64,000 nt of DNA from Spirochaetia bacterium (GCA_034520965.1 JAXHMY010000007.1:32001-96000), one strand, 5' to 3'; shown: positions 1 to 7,887, counted from the stretch's first letter. Translations and numbers: made by a program. Notes: generated by a model from the sequence alone, not told the origin.

Positions 1-2
1 TG

Positions 3-551
3 AAAAGTCTCCGTAATGCTGCCATAAAGAACTTCCGGTTTGAGCTGCCTGTTATTCGTTCGGCTGCTAAATTCCCCTCCAACTCTCAATATGAAGAGGC
101 GCTGGGAGAGAATAAGCTCCTGCTGGATAGACTGCGTCGGGCAATTGAGATTGATGGGATCAAAAGACCACTCACCGCCAGCCCACGTCATACTGCAATT
201 GGTATTCCTGCGGTGGCAAATCCTGGTAAAGGCCAGTTCAACTCTCTGTGCAGGGTGGTGACGGTGGATTCCTATGAAGAAGGTAATGTACTCGAACAGT
301 TTGTACTTCAAATCGACAAGGGAATATATGAGAAGGGGTTTGATGAGATAAAGACCACCCTGAATGCCTTTGAGGGCAGAGCCGACATCACGGACAAGGA
401 TGAGAAGGGCAATCAGTATTATCATCCGAATGGCAAAGCCGATGAGCCGGTCTATAGAATTCGTTTCACCGGACCCTCTGAAGATGAGGATACCGATATA
501 AACGGTTTGAGAACCCTTATGAAGATTCTGCGGAAGTATTTTCCGAACTAG
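3..551 (+). CDS. Hypothetical protein, 5'-truncated by the window edge
   Basis: The frame of ORF 213..551 is open back to base 3 (KSLRNAAIKNFRFELPVIRS...); no recognised motif. Confidence 0.6.
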   Translation, partial: KSLRNAAIKNFRFELPVIRSAAKFPSNSQYEEALGENKLLLDRLRRAIEIDGIKRPLTASPRHTAIGIPAVANPGKGQFNSLCRVVTVDSYEEGNVLEQFVLQIDKGIYEKGFDEIKTTLNAFEGRADITDKDEKGNQYYHPNGKADEPVYRIRFTGPSEDEDTDINGLRTLMKILRKYFPN

Positions 552-622: not shown

Positions 623-641
623 TGTGACAATAAACGGCACA
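623..641. promoter_or_regulatory. Putative WYL-regulator site upstream of dnaE
   Basis: TGTGAC-aataaac-GGCACA, 38 nt before the ATG; TACAGT (-10-like) at 652-657. Confidence 0.7.
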
Positions 642-679
642 CTGATGCTGCTACAGTAGAGGTCTATAGGAGAAAGACA

Positions 680-3076
680 ATGAACGAAAGCAAGAGCCAA
701 TTTTTCCACCTCCATGTCCATTCGGAATACTCCCTCTATGACAGCACTGTTCACCTGCATCGATATGTAGAAGAGGCCACGCACCGGGGATTAAAGCACC
801 TGGCTGTCACAGATAGTGGGAATATGTTCGCTGCGCTTGAGTTCTACAGGCTGTGCCAAGAGGCAGGAATCAATCCCATCATCGGATGTGAGTTTGTCCT
901 CTCCTCCGCCTCTGCTACCACTGACCGAGTAAGTGAGCGTGGGACCATCCTCCTGATTGCAGAGAATAACCAGGGCTACCATAACCTGATGCAGCTGAGC
1001 ACACATTATCATCTTGATAACGCAGAGCTCCTACTCACCGATACTCTGCTGCGGGAATATCATCACTGTCTTATAGCTCTCACCGCTGGGATGGAAGGAG
1101 AAGTATCATGGCAATTAATGCAAGGCAAGTATGAGCAGGCTGAAAATAGGGTGTTGGAGCTGCAGGAGATCTTCGACAAGGATTCACTGTTCTTGGAGCT
1201 CCAAGATAACGGAACAGAAGAGAGTAAGACAGTCAATGAGGGGCTTTCCGTTCTTTCAGCTCGCCTTGGTATTCCGTTGGTTGCTGCTAATCCGGTTCAC
1301 TACCTACATAGAGAAGAGGCGCAGGCCTGTCAGGTCCTCCAGAAAATCGGTTCTCTTTATCACAAGGGAATGAAGTACAACTCGGAAGGACAATCGGATC
1401 AGCAGTACCTTAAAAGTGAAGATGAGATGCATGCTCTCTTCTCTGAGTTTCCGGAGGCCATCGAGAATACGCTGCACATTGCCCAGAGGTGCAGAATAGG
1501 TCTTCCCATGAGTGCTCCTGAATTACCGATGTTGGATATCCCAAGTGAATACCCATCCTCCCATGAGTATCTCAGGGCTCTGGTGATGGAAGGTCTATCT
1601 GGTCGGTATAAACAGGTTTCGCAGGAGGCATATGAGAGAATAGAGAAGGAGCTTGCGGCGCTACAACAGGTTGGGTATACCGATTATCTCCTTATTGTTG
1701 CTGACTATATCGGTTTTGCCTGTAAGAGTGACATTCCAGTGGGACCTGGCAGGGGTGCTGCAGCTGGTTCTCTTGTCGCATATGCCCTGGGAATAACTGA
1801 CATTGATCCTCTGAAGTATGGGCTTCTCTCTGAACGGTTCCTCAACCCTGAACGGATTGCCAGCCCAGATATTGATACCGACTTCTGCTATGATCGGCGT
1901 TGGGAAGTGATGGATTATGTGAGGGATAAGTTTGGAGAAGATCGTACAGCCAATATCATCACCTTTGGAAGGTATAAAGCTCGGTTGGCTGTTCGTGATG
2001 TTGGCAGAGCAATGGGGCTTTCTTATTCTGAGATAGAATCTTTGGCCAGGAAGATTCCATTACAACCAAGTATGAACCTTAAAAGAGCTTTGGAAGATAA
2101 TGTCTATCTGCAAAGGGCAGCAGCTGAAAACCCGTTGAATGGAAAAGCTCTGATGATAGCACAGGTGTTGGAAGGCCTTCCTATTCAGGTTTCAACCCAT
2201 GCAGCTGGTATCGTCATTTCTCGGAAGGCAATTACATCTTACTCTCCCCTGTATAGGGACCGGCAGCACTATGCTGCATGCACCCAGTACACAAGTGACC
2301 GCCTAACCGAACTGGGGCTGGTAAGGTACGACTTTCTGGGCTTCAAGGTGCTGACCCTCCTACAACAGTGCCGAGATAAGATTCGGGAGAATAGATCAGG
2401 TTTTGAGCTTACTCACATTCCTGATGACGATAAGCTTACCTTCCAACTGCTGGGAGACGGCACTACCACGGGAGTTTTCCTCTGCGAGAGCTCCGGTATG
2501 AAGGGCATTCTCCAGAAGGACAAGCCTCAGAATATCGAAGAGCTTACCGCCCTCACTGCACTCTATCGGCCAGGGGCCATGGAGCTGATACCGAGGTATA
2601 TTGAAGCAAAGCAGTCCGGTAGACTTGCGCATTTAATTCCAGATCTTGAGACTATCCTGGCCTCAACCTATGGAATTCTCGTGTATCAAGAGCAGATTAT
2701 GGAAATAGCCCATGCTGTGGCAGGGTGGCCCTACGGAAAGGCTGATATTCTCAGGCGAACCTTGTCGAAGCCGAATGAGCAGCTCGGAGTATCGATGAAG
2801 AGAGGCTTCGTTAAAGATGCAATGGGGCTTGGTGTGTCTAAGGATTCTGCGGAAGGGATTTTTGAAATGCTAACTGAAGCTGGTACATATGCTGTACTCA
2901 AGGCTCATAGCATATCTTACTCGCTGTTGGCCTACCGGTCTGCATTCCTGAAGGCTCATTTCCCTCAAGAGTTCATGCAGAGCTTGTTGAAGGTTGAAGA
3001 GGATAATCCAGCCAAGTATGAAGATTACAGCAAGGAAGCTGCACGAATGGGGCTGTTAACTGATACGTTTTCGTAG
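680..3076 (+). CDS. dnaE: DNA polymerase III alpha (C-family), short form: PHP plus palm/thumb/fingers only
   Basis: HLHVHSEYS, GPGRGAAAGSLVAY, SERFLNPER, PDIDTDF, THAAGIVI, YDFLG, YQEQIM; ends at 798 aa just after KAHFPQEFM, with no HhH/clamp-binding, OB-fold or CTD. Confidence 0.92.
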   Translation: MNESKSQFFHLHVHSEYSLYDSTVHLHRYVEEATHRGLKHLAVTDSGNMFAALEFYRLCQEAGINPIIGCEFVLSSASATTDRVSERGTILLIAENNQGYHNLMQLSTHYHLDNAELLLTDTLLREYHHCLIALTAGMEGEVSWQLMQGKYEQAENRVLELQEIFDKDSLFLELQDNGTEESKTVNEGLSVLSARLGIPLVAANPVHYLHREEAQACQVLQKIGSLYHKGMKYNSEGQSDQQYLKSEDEMHALFSEFPEAIENTLHIAQRCRIGLPMSAPELPMLDIPSEYPSSHEYLRALVMEGLSGRYKQVSQEAYERIEKELAALQQVGYTDYLLIVADYIGFACKSDIPVGPGRGAAAGSLVAYALGITDIDPLKYGLLSERFLNPERIASPDIDTDFCYDRRWEVMDYVRDKFGEDRTANIITFGRYKARLAVRDVGRAMGLSYSEIESLARKIPLQPSMNLKRALEDNVYLQRAAAENPLNGKALMIAQVLEGLPIQVSTHAAGIVISRKAITSYSPLYRDRQHYAACTQYTSDRLTELGLVRYDFLGFKVLTLLQQCRDKIRENRSGFELTHIPDDDKLTFQLLGDGTTTGVFLCESSGMKGILQKDKPQNIEELTALTALYRPGAMELIPRYIEAKQSGRLAHLIPDLETILASTYGILVYQEQIMEIAHAVAGWPYGKADILRRTLSKPNEQLGVSMKRGFVKDAMGLGVSKDSAEGIFEMLTEAGTYAVLKAHSISYSLLAYRSAFLKAHFPQEFMQSLLKVEEDNPAKYEDYSKEAARMGLLTDTFS

Positions 3077-3084
3077 CAGAGGCA

Positions 3085-3801
3085 TTACTCCTCCGGAAGA
3101 GCATCGAAGAACTTGTAAATCAGCCAAGAGGGCTTTTTCTCACCGGTTACTTTGTCCACTGGTGCAGTAAGTGGATAATACCCGTCATTGAGGGCCCGTT
3201 GTACGGTGGTATAGTATCCAGAACGATCTCCCCATATCTGAACTTCTCCGTATTGAGGATCGGTGGAGATGATTGGCTGGGTAATTGTCGGTAAACCTTG
3301 GGAGACTGGTTCTCCTCCGAACATGAGGCTGTGGTCGCCTTTCTGGAAGAGTATAAAGAAGTTCAATTGGTATCTGTTTACAGCTCGCTTAAGATCATCC
3401 GGCATAGACCGCCATGCGTTTCTGTACCACCTGTTAAGTTGGAGCATGTAGATTTGAGGAACACTGATAGGAAGGAGTCTCCGATTACCAGGTTTGAATG
3501 GACGACCGAAAGCATCTTTGGGTGGCTCCTCCGGGGTGTAATCCGGGATCATGATGATAAGTTGTATCTGGTTATTAGCAGCACTGGCACCTACTCGATA
3601 ATCAAAAGCTGGTTCCATATTGCCGAGGCGTTCGGTTATAAACTCTTCGTCGAAGTGGGGTTTCAAGGTTTCTGGTAGCTGGTTAAAGACCTGCAAGGAC
3701 TTTCCGCTGGAAAGGTTGTAGGTGGTCTGGGCTTCCAGGCCTATGGATAAAACAAGGGTGAGAATTGCAGACAAGATAAGTGGTTTCAAATTGTTCTTCA
3801 T
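3085..3801 (-). CDS. Hypothetical exported protein
   Basis: 238 aa; signal peptide MKNNLKPLILSAILTLVLSIGLEA; RBS aaggag. Confidence 0.75.
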   Translation of the reverse strand: MKNNLKPLILSAILTLVLSIGLEAQTTYNLSSGKSLQVFNQLPETLKPHFDEEFITERLGNMEPAFDYRVGASAANNQIQLIIMIPDYTPEEPPKDAFGRPFKPGNRRLLPISVPQIYMLQLNRWYRNAWRSMPDDLKRAVNRYQLNFFILFQKGDHSLMFGGEPVSQGLPTITQPIISTDPQYGEVQIWGDRSGYYTTVQRALNDGYYPLTAPVDKVTGEKKPSWLIYKFFDALPEE

Positions 3802-3850
3802 GCAGAAGCTCCTTCGTCAGTTGGTTACAACCCTACTAATATCAGCTGTG

Positions 3851-3869
3851 TGTGCCGATTTTTGGCACA
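3851..3869. promoter_or_regulatory. Putative WYL-regulator site upstream of the exported protein gene
   Basis: Perfect TGTGCC-gattttt-GGCACA, 49 nt before the ATG at 3801. Confidence 0.7.
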
Positions 3870-3969
3870 GAGGGCTTTTCTTTTAAGTAGTAGGTTGAAC
3901 AATTTGAATAAAGAAATTAGACATTCTAATGAAACCAGAAAGGGGGGACGGAATAATATGAGCTTGTTT

Positions 3970-5454
3970 TTACAGCCCCTCTCGAAGATGCTGATACAGC
4001 CTAACCATCGCAAGAGTATCCAGACGACAGTACTCCTTAAGCCCCTGTGCCAGTTCTAGACGTTTGGACCGGTCTTCTTCTTTTATAAGCTGGTCCCATA
4101 CCACCTGGGCAGCTCCTCCGTTCTGCACATCAAGGTCCTTGTAGCTAAGTTCCGGTACCAGTACTGGCAGAATAGCTTTGATAGAGTTCGACCCTCCGAA
4201 TGCAGGATGGAAGTAGTAGTCTCTGAAGATCTTCATGAGGTCGAAGAACCTGTCCAGCATTCCTCTTAGCTGAGTTCGGTATTCTGGGGTAACAAAAGAA
4301 AGTTCTTTTATTACTCGCTTCTCGAAGCTGTCGTTGAAGGCAATGATGGTACCGTCTGGGCCAATATCTCGGCAGAGCTGTTCGGCCAATGGCCCTCTGG
4401 GGTCGGTATTATCTGTATGCAAATATTCGCTGTGGCTCAGCTCTCCATTCTCTTGCAGGATGTGCAGGCTGTATTGGAAGGCATACTGGTCATAGGGCCG
4501 TAATCCTGGAAGCCTTGGGACTGCGTCCATTTGGGTCTCGAAGTCAAGGAAATATAAGGGGTACTGGAGTGCGGCAAGCTCGTCTCTAATAGCCGGCCAT
4601 AGTATCTGTGCTTTGTTTTGATCGAAAAGTCCCACGTATCGTCTCTGGTTCTCTGAGAAGGGAAAGGTGTCCGGAATATCGTAGATTGAATAGATGTCCT
4701 GAGCAGTGAGCCTGTCGATCTTCTGTGCACTTATCCGGGGAATGGAGAAGATGGAAGGCTCCTTCACCTCCCTCCAGCAGTGGTCTTTGAATGGACATTC
4801 ATAGGGCTGCAGGCAGTGTTTTCCGATTTTAATATCCGGTGCTTGGGGTAACTGGAGGATTGAATGGAACTCTGCGACCTTCGGGTGTAATGCCTTCCAC
4901 ACTATCTCCGTCTCCTCGGTGATATCATCCAGTTCAAAGAGCTCCTGAAGGTCTGGGTATCGGCACTTACGGTTTAGATGCATCAGGTATACCCCTGAAA
5001 CTTCAAGGCCTGAACCTTCCACTACATAGCGCTGCACTGCACTGTCGGCTATATGGGTGTCGCTGGTCTTGGTGGTGGATTTAACCTCAATGACGTTCCA
5101 GGTTCCGTCGATTCGCTGCTGGAGAATGTCTACCCGTACGAAGATACCGTCGAAAAGGAAGGCTGGTTCAAAGAGGACCGGAGCTCCCTGCTGTAAAAGT
5201 TCTTGGGTGTGTTTTAGTGTTCTTTCCGGTTGCCGGAAGTCTCCGTCTACAAGTACCCCTTCGGGGTATTGCTCACAGGCAAGCTCTCCGACAGTATGCC
5301 CTGTATCGAAGATACGCTGCTGGGATGGAGTAGGAGGGCTTGCCAGGTCTCTATGGTATGTCTCTAAGTACAGACGTTTGCTGCACTGAAGGCCGTTGAT
5401 GAATCTGCTTTTGCTCAGTGAACTGTATTTTGTTTTTTCTTTACTCCCATTCAT
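3970..5454 (-). CDS. DUF2779-like protein: Cas4-like PD-(D/E)XK nuclease fused to an RNase H/DEDD-like exonuclease
   Basis: LSKSRF..QCSKRLYL, RVDIL..EVKS, CLQPYECPFKDHC (1+3 Cys), then YFLDFET, FNDSFE, EYCRLD. Confidence 0.85.
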   Translation of the reverse strand: MNGSKEKTKYSSLSKSRFINGLQCSKRLYLETYHRDLASPPTPSQQRIFDTGHTVGELACEQYPEGVLVDGDFRQPERTLKHTQELLQQGAPVLFEPAFLFDGIFVRVDILQQRIDGTWNVIEVKSTTKTSDTHIADSAVQRYVVEGSGLEVSGVYLMHLNRKCRYPDLQELFELDDITEETEIVWKALHPKVAEFHSILQLPQAPDIKIGKHCLQPYECPFKDHCWREVKEPSIFSIPRISAQKIDRLTAQDIYSIYDIPDTFPFSENQRRYVGLFDQNKAQILWPAIRDELAALQYPLYFLDFETQMDAVPRLPGLRPYDQYAFQYSLHILQENGELSHSEYLHTDNTDPRGPLAEQLCRDIGPDGTIIAFNDSFEKRVIKELSFVTPEYRTQLRGMLDRFFDLMKIFRDYYFHPAFGGSNSIKAILPVLVPELSYKDLDVQNGGAAQVVWDQLIKEEDRSKRLELAQGLKEYCRLDTLAMVRLYQHLREGL

Positions 5455-5472
5455 TATGCTAACTCCTCTGAT

Positions 5473-6507
5473 CTAACGGTTATACACCTTTGAAAGGGAG
5501 CTTATCAGCATCTTAAACTCTTCGATGAGCTCCGGTGGATTGGTTATTTTGGCTTGGTCCCCGAAGCTCAAAACCCAACGGAGCACATCAGCCTTGCCGG
5601 ATGTTTCCATAGTTAAGCTAAGCGAACCGTCCTGCTGTTCGGTAATTTCCTGGTTTTTCGCCCATGTTCTGCCGCGAACCCTCCGGGCGGCGGCCGAGGT
5701 AAACTGGATGGTGATCTCTACAGCGTCTCCAAGAGTAAGGTCAAAAGTAGTTTCAAGTAGTTCCTCCGGGTAGAAGTTATTCGGTTCATCAAAATGTTTA
5801 TTGAGTAAGCTAATTTCTTCTATTCTGTCGACTGCAAGGATGCGAATTACTTTTGGGCCGGGAAGTTGTGCAAAGAGGTATAAAGCGCCGTCGTGTTCAA
5901 AAAGCCGAAGCGGATCTATATTGTAGCTCTTAGTGCGGCCATGGGACAGGGCTGTGTAGGTGACTGTGCAGGAGATTCGTTCCACGATTGCCTTTAATAG
6001 ATTCTCAAAAATTACTTCGAAGTGCGAATAGTTTTTGGGGTGGTGAGAAGCGGAGACGAATATCGACTGAAGGCGATCGGTTTGGGCTGCTGAAAGGTAG
6101 TCGGCGGGTATTAGTAGACCGAGTTTCTGCCGTACCGAAGCGAGCAGACTCTCTACCGGTGTACCGGTAAATACTCGATCACGGGAGAGAAGAAAGTAGA
6201 GTGCCAGCTGTTCTCGCAATGTCAGTTTTACATCCGGCAGCCGCAGGTTCGGGAGGTTGTGTAGATAGCTCTCCTCCAGGTGCCAGCGTTTCTCCCTTTC
6301 TCCGGGAATCGTATTATCATAGACCGGAAATTGAAGCTGCTCCAACGTTTCGAAAAGACGATACACCGATCTTCTAGAAATACCCAGCTGTCTTTGCAGC
6401 TCTTTAACTGTTACCCCCTGTGGGTTTGAAAGAGCATCGATTGCCCTGAGAATTTTTATTAAATTTCTTCCATGCACATTGTCAGAATACTCTGTTTTCC
6501 GGTTCAT
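5473..6507 (-). CDS. WYL-domain transcriptional regulator (wHTH-WYL-WCX, PafBC/DriD-like)
   Basis: HTH VTVKELQRQLGISRRSVYR; IDPLRL..ALYLFA..LAVDRI; C-terminal LRWVLSFGDQAKITNP. Confidence 0.92.
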   Translation of the reverse strand: MNRKTEYSDNVHGRNLIKILRAIDALSNPQGVTVKELQRQLGISRRSVYRLFETLEQLQFPVYDNTIPGEREKRWHLEESYLHNLPNLRLPDVKLTLREQLALYFLLSRDRVFTGTPVESLLASVRQKLGLLIPADYLSAAQTDRLQSIFVSASHHPKNYSHFEVIFENLLKAIVERISCTVTYTALSHGRTKSYNIDPLRLFEHDGALYLFAQLPGPKVIRILAVDRIEEISLLNKHFDEPNNFYPEELLETTFDLTLGDAVEITIQFTSAAARRVRGRTWAKNQEITEQQDGSLSLTMETSGKADVLRWVLSFGDQAKITNPPELIEEFKMLISSLSKVYNR

Positions 6508-6543
6508 CGCAAGCTCGCAGTAGTATCATTACTACTCCACAAC

Positions 6544-6562
6544 TGTGCCGAAATCAGGCACA
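6544..6562. promoter_or_regulatory. Putative autoregulatory WYL site
   Basis: Perfect TGTGCC-gaaatca-GGCACA, 36 nt before the WYL ATG. Confidence 0.75.
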
Positions 6563-6573
6563 ATAAAAGACTT

Positions 6574-7455
6574 TTAAGTAACATTTTCCTTTGATGTGAG
6601 GGTCTTGAAGAAGTCTTCATCTTCAATCCGAGATATGGGACTGCTGTTCCATTGGTCTAAGTATTCGCCTAATATAGACAGCAGCTTTCTGTTTGTCTTG
6701 TTCTCAATTTTTTCAATTAAGTTCTTCGCCGTATTGAAACCCAGAACAGGCAAGGAGGAAGAAGCAGAATTACTAAAGAGTTTCTCTGTCACCGATTGCG
6801 GGGCGATTAGCAAAGGAGAGTAGTTAATATGGCTTAGGTCGGGGACAGTATCCTCTGACTTTAAAAACTTAGCCTTCTGAAATCTGTTGGTGTTGTTAAA
6901 AAAATCCTCGAACATATTGCCGAGGCGTTTGGTGAGGCCCATTGCACTGAAATTGTGGAGCAGATACAGGTACTTTCTCGGATTATTGCTTGCTAAAATC
7001 ATTTCGATGATTTCCGATACAATTCCGCCAAAATTCCCTCTTTCCTGCGGAATGCTGGTCTGCAGCTGCTCCATATACTCATTCTGGGTCTCTCGTGCGG
7101 AGCTTTCATCGGTCTTTAGCTCAACGAAGAGTACGTTCTCTATGCGCTTTAGCTCCTTATCGGGAATGAAGAGGGCGAAGTCCACGGCAATAGCCTGGTG
7201 ATGGTCGGTTTCCTTAAAAAAACGAAGGGGGAGAGGAAATTCAGGAATGATATGTGCCTTAGCCATGCACTCCGCTGAGATCTCCTTAGGCAAAGAACTG
7301 TTTCCATTCCTAACAAATTGTGCAAGTAAATCCGGAAGAATGAAGGAGAGAATTACATCAAAATGGCGTTCGAGCTGGAACTTCGGATAAAACCTCCACT
7401 TGTTTAATCTTGATAATAATGATTCGATTGTGAATTCCGGCTGTTCTTTATACAT
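6574..7455 (-). CDS. Putative PD-(D/E)XK (restriction-endonuclease-like) protein
   Basis: PKFQLERHFD..PEFPL..AVDFALF..FVELKTD; AT-rich. Confidence 0.6.
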   Translation of the reverse strand: MYKEQPEFTIESLLSRLNKWRFYPKFQLERHFDVILSFILPDLLAQFVRNGNSSLPKEISAECMAKAHIIPEFPLPLRFFKETDHHQAIAVDFALFIPDKELKRIENVLFVELKTDESSARETQNEYMEQLQTSIPQERGNFGGIVSEIIEMILASNNPRKYLYLLHNFSAMGLTKRLGNMFEDFFNNTNRFQKAKFLKSEDTVPDLSHINYSPLLIAPQSVTEKLFSNSASSSLPVLGFNTAKNLIEKIENKTNRKLLSILGEYLDQWNSSPISRIEDEDFFKTLTSKENVT

Positions 7456-7594: not shown

Positions 7595-7823
7595 TCCGGA
7601 TCAAGTCCTGCCGGGTCCCAGCCACACAATAAAAAAGCGGCCTGTTTTGCAACAAACCGCTTTTTCATTTTGGGCCCACCCTACGTTTTCTCCTTCGGAG
7701 AAAGCCTCGGGCTTGCACTTTGCTGGCGCAAAGTGCTTGGCCAGGACTTTTTCAAGTCCTGGCGCTAACACCAAAAAAATAGCCGTCCGCAAGTAGCGAA
7801 CGGCTATTTTTTATGGGCCCACC
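7595..7823. repeat. tRNA-linked tandem hairpin units with duplicated tRNA 3'-end pieces
   Basis: tgggcccacc at 7671-7680 and 7814-7823; tcaagtcctg at 7601 and 7752; terminator-like hairpins at 7631-7665 and 7774-7812. Confidence 0.6.
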
Positions 7824-7887
7824 AGGACTTGAACCTGGGACGCCCTGATTATGAGTCAGGTGCTCTAACCAACTGAGCTATAGGCCC
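7814..7887 (-). tRNA. tRNA(CAT), probably Ile2 (lysidine-modified); Met not excluded
   Basis: GGGCCTATAGCTCAGTTGGTTAGAGCACCTGACTCATAATCAGGGCGTCCCAGGTTCAAGTCCTGGTGGGCCCA; CCA not encoded. Confidence 0.93.

Follow-up and report, generated by a model that had tools for sequence, protein, structure and literature searches.

We analyzed a 64,000-nt stretch of a Spirochaetia genome (C7:32001-96000, hereafter the window), near one end of which lie genes for a wHTH-WYL-WCX regulator, a short DnaE, a DUF2779 protein and an exported protein. The host genome measures 3.35 Mb and is 86% complete. Our principal finding is that a rare palindrome precedes these genes and a further transcription unit just outside the window, and that this palindrome is, on comparative grounds, very probably the binding site of the WYL protein. 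We propose, with a probability of roughly one half, that the WYL protein acts in the manner of DriD and turns on a kit for DNA-end processing in which the short DnaE serves as a clamp-independent gap filler. Two other readings, defence and the establishment of a mobile element, are weighed below; the regulatory part, which is common to all three, is the firm result.

Three copies of the palindrome lie in the window, with the sequences and at the places that an earlier reading of this DNA (hereafter the original prediction) had given them. The copy before dnaE, TGTGAC-AATAAAC-GGCACA (623..641, plus strand), has one mismatch, and TGTGCC-N7-GGCACA is found on the minus strand before the gene for the exported protein (3851..3869) and before the WYL-DUF2779 operon (6544..6562). 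The gaps between box and start codon, put at 36-49 nt, measured 38 nt for dnaE (start at 680, plus strand), 49 nt for the exported gene (3801, minus strand) and 36 nt for the WYL gene (6507, minus strand). A scan of the window gave these 3 matches and no other full copy in the 64 kb, as had been claimed by eye; 0.28 matches were expected, and 0 of 100 shuffles reached 3. A fourth box, a perfect copy, lies at C7:30201, 1.8 kb to the left of the window. In the genome as a whole TGTGCC-N7-GGCACA has 3 perfect copies, as against 0.098 expected from half-site counts, and 3 copies with one mismatch. All 3 perfect copies (C7:30201-38562) and one of the one-mismatch copies fall within 8.4 kb of C7, and spacers of 5, 6, 8 and 9 nt gave zero perfect copies genome-wide. 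Thus the motif is rare and local rather than scattered over the genome, in keeping with its proposed role. Finally, a matrix trained on 28 sites from other genomes, each preceding a WYL homologue, with the host's own sites outside the training set, ranked the island boxes first to fourth in the host genome: the box of the exported gene at 22.7 bits, that of dnaE at 21.9 bits, the fourth box at 21.5 bits and that of the WYL-DUF2779 operon at 19.8 bits, with the next site at 18.4 bits.

We assign the box to the WYL protein because it is found, at a fixed spacing, ahead of WYL homologues as well as of independent copies of two targets. At eight of ten loci encoding orthologues of at least 51% identity, the box precedes the WYL start by 35-36 nt; at another of the ten (L047) it precedes, by 36 nt, a short dnaE that leads directly into the WYL gene. 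Before more distant homologues (32%-44% identity, many from Desulfobacterota) the box is relaxed to GTGNC-N7-GNCAC; it is found upstream of WYL homologues in both Spirochaetota and Desulfobacterota. The matrix scored at least 10 bits in 31 of 41 regions upstream of WYL homologues compared with 0.4% of shuffles, a count that is partly circular because the matrix was trained on these very regions, its five seeds having been picked out by the window consensus; the ranking in the host genome is the more independent test. In genome G643 the gene for an orthologue of the exported protein (57.5% identity) likewise has a box 49 nt upstream, and further boxes stand ahead of DUF2779 genes, ClpP-like/AAA operons, DnaA-only and DnaB_C-only genes, genes for other exported proteins and an integrase gene. 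A scan for the exact pattern gave matches in 67 of 401 genomes, but single matches mean little because a reversed control also matched many genomes; at least four exact sites were found only in the host genome and in G643 (6 sites). No WYL orthologue was found among the viral contigs searched. The regulon of three units that had been proposed stands as regards the box, which is conserved before WYL homologues and two targets, but it comprises four units and forms part of a larger island.

The layout of the box relative to the putative promoter is activator-like, which is the role that the original prediction had given the WYL protein. Among 35 boxes that were hand-picked as preceding a gene, and of which those that are kin are not independent, a TA occurs at +10/+11 after the box, a gap of 9 nt, in 27 of 35 on the gene side compared with 4 of 35 on the far side. 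If this TA is read as -12/-11 of a -10 element, the box would span about -40 to -22. At the dnaE box the -10-like TACAGT sits one base beyond the usual distance. The box thus lies upstream of the -10-like TA and not, as a BrxR-like operator would, downstream of the -10. A generic sigma-70 scan did not pick the box promoters. On this layout the WYL protein probably activates rather than represses.

The WYL protein itself (344 aa; 5473..6507, minus strand) proved in a domain search to consist of HTH, WYL and WCX domains, and the search likewise bore out the domain calls that the original prediction had made for the short DnaE and the DUF2779 protein. The best solved relative of the WYL protein is DriD (E 1.6e-18). 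Of the residues with which DriD contacts single-stranded DNA (ssDNA), Y168, Y192 and R204 are kept as Y184, Y210 and R222, and R176, R178 and R207 are replaced. It is fairly probable that ssDNA or a similar nucleic acid is the inducing signal. A second WYL gene lies at C7:174649-174810, with no box in its approximate upstream window.

Boxes in other genomes stand before a variety of genes. A perfect box (22.2 bits) in genome G443 (L166:6695-7946, on G443:C1) lies about 21 nt before an integrase gene whose SAM_4 and catalytic parts fall in two open reading frames (ORFs), far from that genome's WYL gene; were it an integron integrase, the WYL box might replace the usual LexA box. Three near-identical boxes at L051:2121-9171 each precede a gene for an exported protein or a lipoprotein (with WG repeats in one case) and are followed by LprI and DUF2779. 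At L059:8231-16368 boxes precede a lipoprotein-FtsZ-like operon, a cluster encoding RtcB, an RF-1-domain (PrfH-like) protein and a phosphatase, and a gene for a DnaB_C protein without a normal N-domain. The box lies between WYL and a divergent operon of ClpP-like (triad kept) and WHD-AAA genes at L050, L053, L054, L057, L061, L063, L070, L072, L073 and L075, and in two of those loci a DnaA-ATPase-only gene heads the operon. N-terminal extensions such as CARYRHT in P0012, P0013, P0016, P0018, P0021, P0025, P0026 and P0028 are the translated box and reflect wrong start calls.

The other gene of the regulator's operon encodes a DUF2779 (PF11074) protein (494 aa; 3970..5454, minus strand) in which a PD-(D/E)XK/Cas4-like domain is fused to an RNase H-fold 3'-5' exonuclease domain; it matched DUF2779 and RNase_H_2, with Cas4 below the cut-off. 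The N-domain is Cas4/lambda-exonuclease-like (D109, E123 and K125, with cysteines C24, C214, C220 and C226) and the second domain is DEDDy-like (D304, E306, E378, Y475 and D479), both active sites being conserved across 17 sequences. A structural model (pLDDT 92.7) matches Cas4, AdnA, Exo5 and lambda exonuclease at E < 1e-3, and RecE and TREX1 more weakly. Both domains had been predicted earlier, without a function (PMC3985635, PMC13621843). The protein is likely, we predict, to resect or trim DNA ends.

The second enzyme of the regulon is the short DnaE (798 aa; 680..3076, plus strand), which comprises PHP, palm, thumb and fingers and ends before HhH. PHP, Pol3 and finger domains were recognized, HhH and OB gave no match, and the clamp motif, OB and tau region are missing, so that the protein departs from the PHP-Pol3-(HhH)2-OB-CTD architecture of DnaE1. 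No separate gene for a DnaE C terminus was found in the genome; a split-intein DnaE was rejected, as there was neither an intein family match nor a partner gene. Six short DnaEs, namely that of the window and five other full-length proteins (779-826 aa, 58%-85% identity), have a common end, EAxxMG, before HhH. In a quick tree they form a clade with 100% support on a long stem (1.38 changes per site) inside spirochaete DnaE1. Because the five other full-length proteins end at the same point, the short DnaE is, to judge by these sequences, not a broken gene. It is 44% identical to the 1140-aa DnaE1 of the host and 30% identical to the product of a separate 1012-aa DnaE2-like host gene. To judge by the relatives of its DnaE, the host looks like a spirochaete. 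A class-wide alignment search of 400 other genomes returned no clade member among the matches listed (best 957 versus 1606 bits), and the viral contigs held only distant DnaEs (23-25%). The window protein keeps the catalytic D397, D399 and D551, plus R358, K741 and the steric-gate H743; across the clade D551 is found in five of six and the others in all six. The equivalents in reference numbering are D401/D403, R362, K758, H760 and D555. The steric-gate His is the counterpart of H760 (PMC8485763). PHP metal ligands are changed, and FNKSH has become an ALKAH-type sequence. We slightly favor the view that the window DnaE is an active polymerase of low processivity. Reportedly, an 818-residue fragment of E. 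coli alpha retains reduced activity.

The remaining products are less readily placed. The exported protein (238 aa; 3085..3801, minus strand), whose signal-peptide-like N-terminus was read from sequence, belongs to a small family and gave no Pfam match, no Atlas match and no Foldseek match at E <= 0.001 (best VIA Z 5.1). Its model is confident (pLDDT 86.8) with no clear fold match, which is no proof of a new fold. Behind the fourth box come, in order, a membrane ORF of 144 aa, the gene for a protein of 195 aa with DnaB_C alone and, last, that for a 401-aa PDDEXK_4 nuclease-like protein, whose gene starts at C7:31346 and has its 3' part in the window (1..551, plus strand). The PDDEXK_4 protein has a weak PADLOC match to PDC-S26 (E 9e-9); the DnaB-like protein keeps Walker B but has neither the N-terminal domain nor, at its C terminus, the Arg-finger hairpin.

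How fixed is this gene set? Among 43 non-redundant homologous loci of at least 7 kb (51 were examined), for which counts are lower bounds since many contigs are short, DUF2779 was found in 16, ClpP-like genes in 12, large AAA genes in 11, PDDEXK_4 in 7, RadC in 6, RecT, Gam, integrase and DnaB-like genes in 4 each, DnaE in 3 and SSB in 2. Thus the expectation that these genes would co-occur elsewhere is borne out for DUF2779 near WYL but hardly for DnaE. Of the three loci with DnaE, L047 encodes a dead protein of 708 aa, L065 a finger domain joined to DUF2779, and L075 a protein of 957 aa that lacks OB/CTD and has no box. Exonuclease, annealase and Gam occur together in the relatives L028, L033 and L161; the full cassette was not found in the host genome. 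Clusters of RadC, SSB and DUF6573 elsewhere in the host genome, at C9:12023-13158 and C1:21461-22573, resemble those in relatives' WYL loci and are without a top-ranked box. Variant contigs taken from microbial-mat sequencing runs, which covered two studies in addition to the probable source, tell of rearrangement closer to hand. Joins in three runs, from just beyond ietA to the end of DUF2779, give the island without dnaE and the exported gene, and in one run a 112-bp skip deletes the dnaE box, so that dnaE follows the PDDEXK_4 gene, the last of the fourth-box unit, after about 35 nt. A 19.6-kb contig skip was not counted as excision because it does not coincide with the 70-bp repeat at the borders of the island (see below). 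The idea of a self-contained module of three parts is not supported in the form proposed, as the fourth unit lies outside the window and contigs join IetA to DUF2779-WYL without dnaE and the exported gene. The core, as far as these loci tell, is WYL, the box and often DUF2779, the remainder being swappable; DnaE is an accessory partner, and the module is not a fixed unit.

In the reading that we prefer, the WYL protein would act like DriD, as an activator bound to the four GTGNC-N7-GNCAC boxes, and on sensing ssDNA would switch on the units behind them. The core of the kit would be DUF2779, a predicted two-headed exonuclease, and its accessory the short DnaE, a predicted distributive gap filler that works without a sliding clamp. 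The loci of the nearest relatives, with RecT, Mu Gam, SSB and RadC in lambda-Red/RecET-like array, fit such end processing. That the kit serves to repair or recombine broken DNA, of the host or of the element, rather than to defend, we put at even odds.

A number of observations weigh against this reading. As to the host, RecT and Gam gave no match in its 86%-complete genome, and no box lies within 300 nt before its recA, dinB-like, dnaE1, dnaE2, ssb or dnaB genes (best <=1.9 bits; dnaB windows approximate). As to the regulon, membrane and exported proteins and PD-(D/E)XK nucleases behind the same kind of box do not fit repair, and the island that houses it also encodes the defence genes IetAS and PDC-M30A/B. 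One of the ten orthologous loci, L201, has no box of at least 13 bits before WYL. In the WYL protein R176, R178 and R207 of DriD are replaced by K193, Y195 and a near-invariant A225, so that its ligand may differ from that of DriD; R207A impairs DriD (PMC9186387). As to the polymerase, of 206 columns that are near-invariant in 21 replicative DnaE1s, 50 are lost in the window protein, F742, N743, R504, H505 and S362 among them. The L047 short DnaE, which groups with P0106 in a second short lineage and lies behind the same box, retains none of the three catalytic aspartates, and this weakens the original idea of a repair or mutagenic polymerase. P0106 and P0092 have lost the third aspartate, and on L037, a 3.6-kb contig, a catalytically dead DnaE fragment lies just before WYL. 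The 768-aa fusion of a DnaE finger to DUF2779 at L065:125-2431 is a singleton among the top 120 matches and was set aside as Rosetta-stone evidence.

The main rival, and a close one, is inducible defence against phages or plasmids by arrest or decoy, to which we give tentative credence only. An ssDNA-sensing regulator would express nucleases and truncated copies of essential machines (DnaE and DnaB_C here; DnaA, FtsZ and ClpP-like/AAA proteins in relatives), which would poison replication or division as dominant negatives or serve as decoys for phage inhibitors. In its favor, partner-binding parts are recurrently truncated: DnaE lacks the clamp/tau region, the 195-aa DnaB-like protein the parts named above, the DnaA-like protein of L053 is an ATPase domain only, and the 333-aa FtsZ-like protein of L059 apparently lacks the C-terminal tail. 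Several short DnaEs have lost catalytic residues, but those of the six-member clade (Clade I) retain the active site over the whole length of their stem; likewise not all paralogues are crippled, because the ClpP-like proteins keep Ser-His-Asp. The company of IetAS and PDC-M30A/B, the weak PDC-S26 match behind the fourth box and the recurrence of PDDEXK_4 suit defence, whereas a matrix scan found no box upstream of the IetAS and PDC-M30 genes, and DUF2779, DnaE and the exported proteins match no defence-system model except Cas4. Gam, SSB and RadC are usually element-serving genes, which we count against defence. The WYL protein DdaA, on the other hand, does control defence systems (PMC12392091). 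A joint claim built on this rival is a shade more doubtful still: that this is a new inducible conflict system, whose ssDNA-sensing activator expresses swappable truncated host machines (DnaE without clamp motif, OB or tau region; DnaB_C; the DnaA ATPase; tail-less FtsZ) that would arrest replication or division or bait phage takeover proteins while the nucleases destroy DNA ends.

A third reading draws on the setting of the genes. All four box sites lie in a 19.8-kb island at tRNA-Met, bounded by 70-bp direct repeats that are 100% identical (left copy at C7:20032-20101, right copy at 7764..7833), the right copy overlapping the 3' end of the tRNA with CAT anticodon (7814..7887, minus strand), which is the integration site and the sole Rfam match. 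The island also encodes ParA, and its DUF2779 gene was found in 0 of 9 genomes of the same genus and 1 of 16 of the same family. Incoming single-stranded DNA of a mobile element might trigger WYL, whereupon Gam, RecT, SSB, RadC, end processing and a priming-independent polymerase would convert, circularize or rescue the element. The tRNA integration with its repeats, ParA and the negative result in the 9 genomes of the same genus favor such establishment, as do the integrase, RadC and SSB genes counted above, a primase-helicase in L033 and the boxed integrase gene of G443. We nonetheless think it improbable, since contig C7 has no phage-integrase match, the scanned ORFs matched no relaxase or conjugation family, many loci (for example those of the ClpP/AAA type) show no mobility genes in 10-kb flanks, and the viral contigs yielded no orthologue. 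Lastly, it is very unlikely that the regulon is real but the short DnaE a decaying passenger that came to lie behind a box by chance, as its rarity among the loci and the contig without the dnaE box might suggest, since the end point is shared across 58-85% divergence, 10 of the 18 dnaE strain differences listed are synonymous, a separate short lineage lies behind the same box beside WYL, and in the boxless contig dnaE comes to follow the last gene of the fourth-box unit.

Other features of the island call for brief mention. A 293-aa passenger with a nuclease-like ELK motif (6574..7455, minus strand) has no family match and no box upstream (best 6.0 bits), and is absent from the corresponding place in the relative L027. 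Adjoining the island is a second segment (C7:12666-20032) with an 801-aa ORF, a nucleotidyltransferase-like pair and an AbiEi-family gene with its neighbor; because a 132-bp repeat at C7:12666 matches window positions 7619-7749, tandem insertions into one tRNA are suggested. Elsewhere, a nucleotidyltransferase-like domain and an EamA transporter form one 456-aa ORF (L001:16353-17723), possibly two genes fused by a frameshift.

What these results offer is, first, a precise putative operator and promoter layout for a WYL subfamily of Spirochaetota and Desulfobacterota and, second, a tie between one inducing signal and both an uncharacterized DUF2779 nuclease and an exported family of no recognized fold. 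The short DnaE, if active, would be a minimal DnaE; if it is inactive, truncated replisome paralogues would act as inhibitors or decoys, and defence would then have a new principle. As a kind, WYL activators that use palindromic boxes of the N7 type are familiar from DriD and DdaA. In open-access full text (supplements excluded) we found no prior description of this box, of this island-limited regulon, of the HhH-less DnaE or of their combination; the literature searched held nothing on WYL and DUF2779 together, and titles and abstract openings gave no evident mention of DUF2779 regulation.

Among known systems, lambda Red/RecET consists of Exo, an annealase and Gam. The DUF2779 N-domain has the fold of lambda exonuclease and RecE, and relatives have RecT and Gam beside DUF2779, but here there is an extra DEDDy domain and WYL control, and no RecT or Gam to match in the host. 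In the imuA-imuB-dnaE2 mutasome, too, a damage-type regulator governs a C-family polymerase that is additional to the replicative one and altered in its PHP ligands. As the original prediction had maintained, however, the present locus is something else: no imuA or imuB is found among the island ORFs, the polymerase is DnaE1-derived, lacks HhH and OB and in the quick tree falls outside the DnaE2 clade, the host has its DnaE2-like gene elsewhere, and LexA gave no match in the genome as far as it is complete, the sole IMS-family gene of which lies at C3:277721. The 2014 survey of C-family polymerases by Timinskas et al. (PMC3919608) reports extra diverged copies (DnaEX) and loss of OB and CTD. 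It treats PHP-Pol3-(HhH)2 as nearly universal, and the portions of its text covered here show no HhH-less form, though rare forms may be in its figure 3 or supplements; a natural, conserved form without HhH, clamp motif, OB and tau region thus departs from parts treated there as near-universal. BrxR/CapW repressors (PMC9122601) share the domain set, the island location, an inverted-repeat operator and control of their own gene, but the BrxR repeat is of the 11-5-11 type and lies downstream of the -10, whereas the box here lies 9 nt upstream of the -10-like TA, and no BREX or CBASS stands behind a box in this island. DdaA of Moraxellaceae (PMC12392091) is a WYL activator with a palindrome (CGWCA-N5-TGWCG) and with one WYL arginine replaced by Ala; its box covers repair and defence genes, in place of LexA. 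It is a core, genome-wide regulator that has lost the first arginine, whereas here the second is lost and the regulon is local and horizontally spread. Closest of all is the DriD regulon of Caulobacter crescentus (PMC9186387, PMC13004042), whose regulator is of the same wHTH-WYL-WCX homodimer type, recognizes a palindrome with a 7-nt spacer (CGAC-N7-GTCG) and has a box at its own gene. Its sites take the place of the -35 and keep a constant distance to the -10, an arrangement that the box appears to share here, and its targets include nucleases and a replication gene. The present box differs in sequence (GTGNC-N7-GNCAC) and is restricted to an island, being absent before recA and other repair genes of the host. 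The three arginines R176, R178 and R207 are not kept, and the genes behind the box encode DUF2779, an exported protein and truncated paralogues of DnaE and DnaB.

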